Source: Minisyncoccota bacterium (lineage in GTDB: Bacteria > Patescibacteriota > Minisyncoccia > Phycocordibacterales > JBAZVT01). Taken from it: a stretch of DNA of 64,000 nucleotides. The stretch is from NCBI GenBank assembly GCA_041660745.1, contig JBAZVT010000003.1:1880-65879 (forward strand), written 5' to 3'. The notes below the pieces were generated by a model. That model was given only the letters and a program-made list of their open reading frames with translations. It did no database searches and had not been told where the DNA came from. Both the position numbers and the translations under genes were made by a program. Shown here piece after piece: positions 50,186 to 51,480 of the stretch. Positions within the stretch are counted from its first letter, which is position 1; the number at the start of each line of letters is the position of its first letter.

Positions 50186-50340
50186 TTTACGTAATATTTA
50201 ATTTAGAAATAATAATTACCAAAAACTTTTTTATTGACACACCCCACAAACCATTTTCTATATTGTATCACCCGCCCCACCAAAAATCTTCATTCCCTTT
50301 TAATAAAAACTGTGGATAACTTTTTCTTCCTTAGGACTCT

Positions 50341-50386
50341 TCCATAGGACCGCCCTATGTTTTCACATAGGGCGGTCCTATGGAAA
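50341..50386. repeat. REP hairpin (perfect palindrome ATAGGACCGCCCTATG-n-CATAGGGCGGTCCTAT) flanking the RAYT gene
   Basis: Sits 1 bp from the transposase stop. An inverted partner lies at 51097-51143; a degenerate third copy at 51421-51480. Confidence 0.7.
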
Positions 50387-51082
50387 TTATTTTGGCTCAC
50401 CTCTTAAATCTCCAAGATCCCTGAACTCAAGCCAGTCAGAAACAATACTTTCAAAAGATGGCGCTGGAGACGAAAAGTAATCCGGAAACTCATCAGCTTT
50501 TAGTATTTTTGATTCAGGTCTTAAATTAAAGTTAATTTCCACATATTCCTTGTAACTTGAATATTTATAATTATCTAAGAAATTCTCAGCTTTTTGCATG
50601 TCCACAACCCCCCTCTCTTTCCACGCAGGATCAATAATCTTTACCGGATTTAAATGTATATATGAAACTAAATACTTTAAATATTCGTCGGTATTTGCAT
50701 GAACTGCTTTAAATCGGCTCTCAAAAAGACTTCCGGTCCGTGTATTTTTTCTATTGAAATACATTGAGTATGACGTAAGCAATTTACCCAAAAATTTACT
50801 TATACCACCTTCTTCTGTTTCTTTTAAAAGTATGTGGAAATGATTTGGCATCAAACAGTATGCGCCGACAGAAACAATACTATCTTTCTTTTGAAAATTA
50901 AAAATATCCTTAAATTCCTTCTCAATCTCCCTAAAAGTTATATTTTGAGATGTATTATAAACAAATAAACCTTTAATAAAACGTTGATAATCTCTTTCGT
51001 CCTGAAAAATAAAGCGTTTATCAACGCCTCGAGCATAAATGTGATAGTACTCTCCTACACTAAATTCGATTTTTCTTTGCAT
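50387..51082 (-). CDS. IS200/IS605-family Y1 HUH transposase, REP-associated (RAYT / TnpA_REP-like)
   Basis: HUH motif LMPNHFHILL; catalytic Tyr region YLKYLVSYIHLNP; N-terminal YHIYARGVDKRFIF. 231 aa; flanked on both sides by REP palindromes. Confidence 0.8.
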   Translation of the reverse strand: MQRKIEFSVGEYYHIYARGVDKRFIFQDERDYQRFIKGLFVYNTSQNITFREIEKEFKDIFNFQKKDSIVSVGAYCLMPNHFHILLKETEEGGISKFLGKLLTSYSMYFNRKNTRTGSLFESRFKAVHANTDEYLKYLVSYIHLNPVKIIDPAWKERGVVDMQKAENFLDNYKYSSYKEYVEINFNLRPESKILKADEFPDYFSSPAPSFESIVSDWLEFRDLGDLRGEPK

Positions 51083-51096
51083 TTTTATAAGAATAG

Positions 51097-51143
51097 AGGT
51101 TTTACATAGGACCGCCCTATGTTTTTACATAGGGCGGTCCTAT
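51097..51143. repeat. REP hairpin, partner of the 50341-50386 copy
   Basis: ACATAGGACCGCCCTATGtttttaCATAGGGCGGTCCTATGT. Confidence 0.7.
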
Positions 51144-51146
51144 GTT

Positions 51147-51329
51147 CTATCTATTGCTATTGTCTAAAGCATTAATGACAGAAGATGGGGTTGGGTTGGA
51201 AGCACGAAGATCGTTGCCGGAAACATAGCTGTTGTAAGAGAGGATGCCGGTGACGATGAGGCTTGCAAGAAGGATCGCGATAAAACTGAGGAAAAAATTG
51301 AAGAATGTTTTATCGAAGCAGTCTGACAT
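51147..51329 (-). CDS. Small hypothetical membrane protein (60 aa)
   Basis: MSDCFDKTFFNFFLSFIAILLASLIVTGILSYN. Upstream in-frame extension overlaps a REP copy and is probably non-coding. Confidence 0.3.
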   Translation of the reverse strand: MSDCFDKTFFNFFLSFIAILLASLIVTGILSYNSYVSGNDLRASNPTPSSVINALDNSNR

Positions 51330-51420
51330 TGTAATCGTATTATAACAAAGGCCTTCAGATAAGGGAAAAATGTTGCTCATAATCTGTGGATAACTCAAGA
51401 ATATATAAAATGCATACGAC

Positions 51421-51480
51421 CGCCCTATGTATGTCACGGGAAAATTCCCAACTCCCTACCCTAGGGATGTCCTATGTATA
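51421..51480. repeat. Degenerate REP-like palindrome (ACGACCGCCCTATG ... CCTATGTATACG)
   Basis: Shares the ACCGCCCTATG core and an upstream CTGTGGATAACT motif (51384-51395) with the copy at 50310-50386. Confidence 0.5.

Follow-up and report, generated by a model that had tools for sequence, protein, structure and literature searches.

The 64-kb window analysed here, i.e., the whole stretch of contig JBAZVT010000003.1 under study, comes from a bacterium of the Candidate Phyla Radiation (CPR) with a very small genome, and contains a gene of the HUH/Y1 tyrosine transposase type that is tightly bracketed by two palindromes. An earlier note, made from the sequence alone, had proposed that this locus is a REPtron, in which a transposase gene is flanked by repetitive extragenic palindromes (REPs), and that a conserved 12-mer belongs to the outer side of these repeats. 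The enzymes of such systems are known as REP-associated tyrosine transposases (RAYTs). The locus comprises the following features (positions are those of the window):

Palindrome A, 50340-50385, no strand: perfect stem of 21 bp with the 4-nt loop TTTC, 1 nt past the stop codon.
Y1 gene, 50387-51082, minus strand: class-2 HUH/Y1 protein of 231 amino acids (aa), RAYT/TnpAREP-like, a predicted single-strand DNA endonuclease.
Palindrome B, 51104-51145, no strand: perfect stem of 19 bp with the 4-nt loop TTTT, of the same polarity as A.
Small open reading frame (ORF), 51147-51329, minus strand: 60 aa, hydrophobic, between palindrome B and the third copy.
Decayed third copy, 51413-51478, no strand: arms at 51413-51430 (1 mismatch) and 51460-51478 (3 mismatches).

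The protein of the Y1 gene has the length and the HFHILL motif given in the earlier note. NHFHILL contains the HUH motif (H81-F-H83), YIHLNP contains the presumed catalytic tyrosine (Y141), and the Pfam family Y1_Tnp is matched with 43.3 bits (cutoff 23). Among 53 homologues, N80, H81, H83, Y137, Y141, H143, L144, and N145 are invariant, and so are S175 and S176, which lie in a conserved C-terminal tail of ~80 aa that contains a YSSY motif. Because the catalytic residues do not vary among these homologues, the enzyme is probably active. In an AlphaFold2 (AF2) model with a predicted local distance difference test (pLDDT) score of 90.9, the tail is helical.

Y1 transposases have been divided into class 1, with the IS200 signature Y---Q, and class 2, which is TnpAREP-like and carries Y---NP; subclass 2.1 is characterized by NH[YF]H, FQ or W[EQ], Y[IV]HLNP, SS in the tail, and a median length of 238 aa (Quentin et al. 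2018, PMC6006769). The YIHLNP motif of the window protein has the class-2 signature and does not match that of IS200. Its NHFH, LFESRF (the FE motif), YIHLNP, SS-containing tail, and length of 231 aa fit the motif set of subclass 2.1, an assignment made by motifs alone, against Table 1 of that study. REP_Tyr_transpos was the sole NCBIfam model to match the protein at E <= 0.01. A Foldseek search of the PDB gave 4ER8 as the best match (E 1.8e-5, compared with ~2e-3 for the TnpA proteins of IS608 and ISDra2), and the fold is nearer to TnpAREP than to IS608 TnpA. Based on motifs, NCBIfam, and Foldseek, the enzyme belongs with RAYT/TnpAREP and not with IS200, as the earlier note had supposed.

The Y1 gene is present once in the window. 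Its database record reads 'transposase', from a Candidatus Paceibacterota metagenome-assembled genome (MAG), and its closest relatives are nearly all from Patescibacteria. The nearest of more than 7800 homologues is only 57% identical, with the closest relatives at 50-57%, and a profile search of 1.84 billion representatives returned 1139 clusters (50% identity) at E <= 1e-30. The neighbourhood of the gene in the window was found again in eight of the ten homologue lineages looked up, with the gene located elsewhere in the other two. The conserved order is RecA, FtsK, a protein of ~290 aa, a large protein, Y1, a protein of 160-205 aa, and another large protein. The large protein before Y1 is of the PG_binding type in five of the eight syntenic loci and unannotated in the remaining three, and the one after the 160-205-aa gene is of the LTD type in seven of the eight. 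Ribosomal L10/L12 come next in the four loci that reach far enough (L121, L122, L123, and L142; such handles denote the comparison loci and contigs). Since this position has been kept while the syntenic Y1 proteins are ~54% identical, the gene has had a long vertical inheritance, and a pattern of conserved position and vertical descent has been reported for RAYTs (Bertels et al. 2017, PMC5581495). The low copy number and vertical inheritance of a REPtron enzyme are thus found here (one copy in 64 kb, 57% best identity, synteny in 8/10 lineages). The Y1 gene is no active insertion sequence (IS) but a domesticated gene, with a housekeeping-like low copy number and vertical inheritance.

These data bear directly on the explanation that the locus is an ordinary IS of the IS200/IS605 type, with palindromes A and B as its subterminal hairpins. 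Such a view agrees with a Y1 gene lying between two like hairpins that are direct by their loops, and with the Pfam label of the domain, 'Transposase IS200 like'. On the other hand, elements of this type (IS608, ISDra2) encode a Y---Q protein of ~150 aa, are present in many near-identical copies, and are often transferred horizontally, and the window locus has none of these properties. The window protein has a class-2 motif, 231 aa, a conserved tail, and a structure closer to TnpAREP; no tnpB adjoins the gene, and its single copy, its lack of any homologue above 57% identity, and its retained slot do not suit a mobile element. This explanation is therefore largely refuted and is considered very improbable.

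Both bracketing palindromes are perfect, as the earlier note had stated; its boundaries of the second (51097-51143) were a few nucleotides off. Folded as single-stranded DNA (ssDNA), A reaches -26.1 kcal/mol (z -12.1 against shuffles) and B reaches -23.5 kcal/mol (z -12.3). Each of their arms, CATAGG-ACCGC-CCTATG, is itself a small palindrome, so that both hairpins are inverted dimers of a 17-nt unit, CATAGGACCGCCCTATG, which is present in both orientations inside A and inside B, as for the flanking repeats of a REPtron. Palindrome B lies 21 nt upstream of the Y1 ATG and 1 nt past the stop codon of the small upstream ORF. The degenerate third copy of the earlier note is also present, with arms ~30 nt apart and a fold no better than that of shuffles (z -1.8). 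When up to 3 mismatches were allowed, CATAGGACCGCCCTATG had 10 matches in the window (0.09 expected), all at the Y1 locus. The feet of the stems read CATAGG, CACAGG, CCAAGG, or CTAAGG in the sequences compared.

Ordinary terminators of the window have A/T runs, and A and B lack a T tract on the gene strand. Their reading as ordinary terminators was ruled out, as a T-rich tail is present on the non-coding strand alone. The small ORF is probably co-transcribed with Y1 from a promoter at 51339-51395. It had no Pfam match and did not resemble the small ORF ahead of a second type of Y1 gene in L123; as it is not conserved, it would probably lie outside the system. A terminator-like hairpin elsewhere in the window (42362-42410; AATAGGGCGTTC-TCAAA-GAACGCCCTATT) has the core TAGGGCG/CGCCCTA in common with the Y1 palindromes, but with the arms swapped, and its kinship with them is uncertain.

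The arrangement is shared by related genomes. The Y1 gene is bracketed by matching palindromes in the window and in eight of the ten orthologous loci, with 0-32 nt from the palindrome end to the ATG in those eight, and -1 to 16 nt from the stop codon to the 3' palindrome except in L137 (66 nt), where the bracketed arrangement is retained despite a different genomic context. The palindromes of the eight loci are as follows:

L121: ATCCAAGGGG(T/A)CCCCTTGGAT.
L122: CCAAGGCCCGGCCTATGT/ACATAGGCCGGGCCTTGG.
L123: ACGGAGGG-CTA/TAG-CCCTCCG.
L137: ACACAGGGTAGTCCTGTGT/ACACAGGACTACCCTGTGT.
L140: GCATAGGGGTACCCTATGT/ACATAGGGTACCCCTATGC.
L142: TTTACTAAGGCAAGGCCTT and its reverse complement.
L145: TTGCGAAGGCCCGCCCTTCGCAA, in three copies.
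L146: AGGAAGGCCCGGCCTTCCT, in three to four copies.

The flanking palindromes are thus alike on the two sides of the gene and different from genome to genome, which bears out the REPtron-like arrangement of the earlier note. All differences between the stems of different genomes are compensated on the opposite arm, and the apex CCTATGT/ACATAGG is common to the window and several orthologous loci. In L121, L123, and L142, the single units that flank Y1 are mutually inverted, in a REPtron-like manner. In L121, the sequence of the flanking palindrome, ATCCAAGGGGTCCCCTTGGAT, is found within the Y1 gene as well (10156-10178), where it encodes IQGVPLD; this is a variable loop before the HUH motif, at which related proteins have IQG..PL.

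Dispersed copies of the repeat were found in other CPR genomes. A metagenome scan for the doublet core yielded 11 contigs, ten of them from the dataset Ga0213870, in which at least 11 copies with the 14-nt core GGACCGCCCTATGT lie on 10 contigs with unrelated flanks. These copies carry CACCAAGGACCGCCCTATGTACTACATAGGGCGGTCCTTGGTG, with the inner 14 nt as in the window and an outer stem like that of L122, and their stem variants are compensated (G..C to T..A). In contig L127, a REP doublet (4400-4428) is inserted in frame within topA (ORF 2998-5319) and adds a loop of 13-16 aa, QGPPYVLHRAVLG, which is missing from the 11 closest TopA homologues. In contig L136, two REP doublets 938 bp apart (2356-3322) flank a cassette of a PIN-domain toxin and a small antitoxin; the otherwise identical sister contig L126 has a single REP (2168-2196) and no cassette, and the difference is a repeat-bounded insertion/deletion polymorphism. 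A Hainich groundwater contig (L130) contains a 21-bp stem identical to that of hairpin A in another context. Contigs of genome collections (596 Gb) were also scanned with the 14-mer AGGACCGCCCTATG, an unspecific probe with mostly chance matches. Among the matches listed, a Minisyncoccia MAG, JBARNW01, has at least three extragenic single 17-nt units on three contigs. One of them lies 4 nt past the stop codon of the orthologue of window ORF 31746-33137 (~70-74% nucleotide identity), and the window has an ordinary terminator at the corresponding position. Because the copies are dispersed, have unrelated flanks, and bound an insertion polymorphism, the repeat acts like a REP/REPIN in related organisms.

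Taken together, these features make it likely that the locus is a REPtron/TIRtron-like unit, i.e., a domesticated, vertically inherited, single-copy RAYT-type HUH/Y1 gene tightly bracketed by its cognate repeats. Several observations weigh against this. There are three palindrome copies in 64 kb and every one is at the Y1 locus. A and B have loops of like polarity on the plus strand (TTTC and TTTT), an IS-like direct arrangement, so that the inverted REPs of the earlier note hold for the single units of the three orthologous loci above but not for this pair. The guide tetranucleotide GTAG, which the earlier note had suggested looking for beside the REPs, is absent, as neither GTAG nor GTGG was found at the hairpin feet in the window or the orthologous loci; GTAG-less atypical repeats have been reported for subclasses 2.6 and 3 (Quentin et al., PMC6006769), and the same study found no REP-like hairpins beside subclass 2.1 genes. 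The REP_Tyr_transpos score (43.9 bits) is under the curated family cutoff of 80, and the protein is therefore no equivalog of that family; searches of the PDB by single sequence and by profile returned no significant match. Finally, the Ga0213870 contigs with dispersed copies could not be linked to an orthologous Y1 gene, and the only Y1 gene seen among these contigs (in L127) is of another type, NHWH...YVERNA.

That type represents a second, distant Y1 family in CPR (~225-242 aa, 26% identical to the window protein). It was observed in L127 (1077-1805) and L123 (8058-8732), and in the latter it lies two genes upstream of the orthologue of the window gene, at the same locus.

The positions of the hairpins also suggest a different view, in which the palindromes are cis-regulatory or structural elements (an operator, an mRNA-stabilising or insulating hairpin, or an unconventional terminator) and the Y1 enzyme has another substrate. 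The hairpins occupy terminator or promoter positions, as seen for B between the small ORF and the Y1 start codon; they abut the ATG in L140 and L146 and lie between the box described below and the -10 hexamer in L145. A REP unit takes the place of a terminator in JBARNW01, and the copies of the window are all bound to the locus. This view leaves unexplained the copies with unrelated flanks on 10 contigs and the in-frame insertion in topA, and the transcribed strand has no T tract. Moreover, REP/RAYT pairs are known for this pattern of repeats that are identical around the gene and divergent from genome to genome (PMC6006769). A purely regulatory or structural explanation is thus unlikely, and regulatory and REP roles are not mutually exclusive.

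The second element of the earlier note is the 12-mer CTGTGGATAACT, the reverse complement of AGTTATCCACAG, whose core, as that note had pointed out, is the DnaA-box consensus. It occurs exactly at the three positions claimed there, 50310, 51384, and 54090, and with 2 mismatches at 55688, always on one strand. The exact core TGTGGATAA has four occurrences in the window, all intergenic. The boxes are as follows:

AGTTATCCACAG box, 50310-50321, minus strand: 43 nt upstream of the extended -10 TGaTACAAT (TACAAT at 50262-50267).
AGTTATCCACAG box, 51384-51395, minus strand: 40 nt upstream of the -10 TATAAT at 51339-51344, at the small ORF/Y1 unit.
AGTTATCCACAG box, 54090-54101, minus strand: 30 nt upstream of the -10 TATAAT at 54055-54060, with the -35 TTTGCA.
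(A)GTTATCCACA box, 30168-30176, plus strand.

The promoter with the box at 50310 serves a 202-aa gene (49577-50185) and an LTD/beta-helix gene, and the same promoter box lies downstream of Y1 in L122, L138, L142, L145, and L146. The box at 54090, which is unrelated to the Y1 palindromes, is preceded by an adjoining short terminator hairpin, TCCCGCACGGGA (54110-54123), and its transcript enters the gap at 53.5-54.1 kb; the orthologous gap has a box in L121, L122, L123, L138, and L142, and probably in L145 and L146. The window and ten orthologous loci (228 kb) together hold 21 copies of GTTATCCACA, compared with ~0.5 expected (the value of 0.44 was calculated on 192 kb). All 21 copies are on the strand of the downstream gene, and 19 of them have a -10 hexamer downstream. 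For 18 copies, the spacing to the -10 is 30-31 nt (8), 33-34 nt (3), or 40-43 nt (7), i.e., roughly two classes one helical turn apart; at L122 18294, the first -10 match is at 22 nt and TGGTATAAT is at 30 nt. The corresponding figures at random positions are 1.8% and 3%.

Many boxes have no Y1-type palindrome nearby, such as those upstream of a mechanosensitive-channel gene (L122 and L142) and those within the conserved gap that precedes the PG_binding gene (L121, L122, L123, L138, and L142), and no box lies alongside the dispersed palindrome copies checked. The idea that the 12-mer is part of the repeat or a target-site mark was rejected, as it is phased to -10 hexamers and absent at the dispersed copies. 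Rather than an outer part of the REP, as first proposed, AGTTATCCACAG is a separate promoter-upstream element, present at many promoters that have no REP nearby. It comes to lie beside the palindrome 3' of Y1 because the next gene's promoter is syntenic and there is little spacer sequence. DnaA acts as a transcription factor (PMC8203912), and either DnaA or the ~290-aa winged-helix neighbour is a candidate reader of the box. The latter is encoded at 54619-55506 on the minus strand of the window (295 aa); its orthologues in L145 and L146 weakly match a DeoR-type winged helix, and it could regulate the adjacent surface-protein genes. The DnaA-box consensus ~30 or 40 nt upstream of the -10 is a candidate general promoter element of Paceibacteria. 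An idea taken from PMC6006769, that the tail of the Y1 protein is a DnaA_C-like helix-turn-helix (HTH) reading the adjacent DnaA boxes, was dropped in the absence of Pfam or hhalign similarity: Bac_DnaA_C, HTH_23, and HTH_28 had no Pfam match in any of 53 members at E <= 5, and hhalign against E. coli DnaA domain IV gave a probability of 0.9%.

The resemblance to DnaA boxes might also indicate that the boxes and hairpins at 50.3-55.7 kb, including the palindromes, form a replication origin or a DnaA-titrating locus. Three exact and several one-mismatch boxes lie within 5.4 kb, box matches number 35 window-wide (18 expected), the cumulative GC skew has a weak local minimum near 53 kb, and the non-coding gap 53491-54618 is long and conserved. 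However, the boxes are unidirectional and keep a set spacing to the -10 hexamers downstream of them, unrelated genes in other loci have this box at their promoters too, and neither dnaA nor dnaN was seen in those neighbouring genes that were checked. The GC skew has its strong switch at ~28 kb, which is terminus-like, and remains negative at 61-64 kb; besides, the dispersed palindromes have no adjoining box. GC skew and box orientation led to the rejection of oriC, and the probability left for an origin or titration locus is slight in the extreme.

A broader role of the locus could also be imagined, in which Y1 and the palindromes are a host module fixed in one slot across Paceibacteria, which processes ssDNA locally near surface-protein genes together with the AGTTATCCACA promoter element. 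In this case, the more than 1000 sequence clusters and the slot between large, fast-evolving cell-surface protein genes may reflect a job in the recombination, diversification, or regulation of surface genes, and AGTTATCCACA may be read by DnaA or the conserved winged-helix neighbour. Such a host module is regarded as quite doubtful.

For the REPtron/TIRtron-like unit preferred here, several known systems offer points of comparison, and the E. coli REPtron or a Pseudomonas REPIN/RAYT pair would be the best working analogy. The E. coli REPtron, with flanking REPs and bacterial interspersed mosaic elements (BIMEs), is reportedly also the subject of work by Ton-Hoang in 2012. Like the window locus, it has a single-copy HUH/Y1 gene with Y---NP (TnpAREP/RayT, YafM, PDB 4ER8; Messing 2012, PMC3479197) that lies between palindromes of the family on which it presumably acts, and its repeats may form inverted pairs. 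In contrast, the window protein shares 11-13% sequence identity with that of E. coli and adds the helical tail of ~80 aa, the GTAG tag is missing, the unit of the repeat is only 17 nt long and thus shorter, and the flanks are perfect dimers with a spacer of 0-6 nt. The copy number is also apparently low, and the host, a CPR bacterium, has a very small genome. In the Pseudomonas REPIN-RAYT system (Bertels and Rainey 2011, PMC3116915), an inverted REP pair likewise forms one long hairpin, single units also occur, and a single-copy RAYT gene is passed on vertically with its own REPINs on either side. The Pseudomonas units are, however, parted by a spacer region (PMC3337134) instead of 0-6 nt, hundreds of copies are present compared with three within 64 kb here, and the RAYT belongs to a group different from that of the window enzyme.

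The closest described category is the TIRtron with its enzyme TIRYT, named after terminal inverted repeats (TIRs; Di Nocera et al. 2013, PMC3733652), which is equivalent to subclass 2.1 (PMC6006769) and to RAYT Group 1 (PMC5581495). Similarities include NH[YF]H, an FQ-like motif, Y[IV]HLNP, the SS tail, and ~238 aa, as well as flanking repeats that lack GTAG and are in some cases wholly self-complementary, moderately abundant repeat families, and repeats inside replication/repair genes. On the other hand, the TIRtron motif GGGGWSAS fits no flanking palindrome of the window or the orthologous loci, and the tail has no detectable DnaA_C/HTH similarity; unrelated and self-complementary TIRs are also listed by Di Nocera et al. 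(PMC3733652). Whereas subclass 2.1 is REP-less according to Quentin et al., the hairpins here are tight and conserved, with the subclass assigned by motifs alone.

By analogy with E. coli TnpAREP and IS608 TnpA, the Y1 enzyme is inferred to bind, cleave, and move the repeats. The palindromes would fold when the DNA becomes single-stranded, e.g., on the lagging-strand template, and each two-unit element, almost spacer-less and REPIN-like, would form one hairpin of 19-21 bp. The enzyme would bind this hairpin and might cleave beside it through Tyr141, with a metal held by H81/H83 and a 5'-phosphotyrosine link, after which the strands would be rejoined. Repeat units could thereby be excised, copied, and inserted elsewhere, and the two flanking copies could be kept alike while drifting between genomes.

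Several additional features were observed in the window. The non-coding gap 53491-54618 (1.1 kb) is kept as a gap of 0.5-0.9 kb in all eight syntenic loci. The box-type promoter whose -10 lies at 54055-54060 is directed into the gap, and GTATGTAAGTTCAGTGC, the sequence past this -10, is conserved between L122 and L142. The gap could represent an unannotated RNA or a long leader; Rfam at gathering thresholds gave no match in it. A second repeat family, CTGGATTCCCGCCTTCGCGGGAATGACAGAG, forms hairpin pairs at 54359-54431, 53810-53890, and 55766-55910, and in L133 at 1394-1424. It translates to spurious 'RRRESG...SRLRGND' peptides and has a 31-nt stretch identical in a Ga0213870 contig. Another long palindrome, based on CAGAGGCT(T/A)AGCCTT, is present at 54249-54301, 54558-54608, and 63515-63565, and the first two of these copies have A/T-run flanks and the look of bidirectional terminators. 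At 27000-31000, the GC skew changes from plus to minus at ~28-29 kb between converging genes in a terminus-like manner, and an inverted pair of DnaA-type boxes with an adjoining hairpin lies at 30102-30176. The 23S rRNA gene (37507-40906, minus strand) is 3400 nt long, which exceeds the 2925-nt model and thus implies one or more insertions; 5S rRNA follows at 37251-37359, and no 16S or tRNA genes were found in the window.

To date, work on RAYT/REP systems has been confined almost entirely to Proteobacteria and a handful of other phyla, and these systems are debated as host-domesticated transposases. Searches of the literature available to the analysis gave no paper that connects RAYT or REP to CPR/Patescibacteria, in agreement with the remark in the earlier note that such systems had not been characterized there. 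The arrangement is a known one, of the REP/RAYT type, in a lineage without an earlier description. It suggests that the largest RAYT group (Group 1/subclass 2.1-like), which has been reported as REP-less, can have cognate hairpins. Ultra-small, streamlined genomes should be under strong selection against selfish DNA, and yet a RAYT-class enzyme and its own palindromes have been kept throughout a large radiation of such genomes, mostly in the same slot. This argues for a host-level function, and the locus provides a compact system for testing the host-level function of RAYTs.

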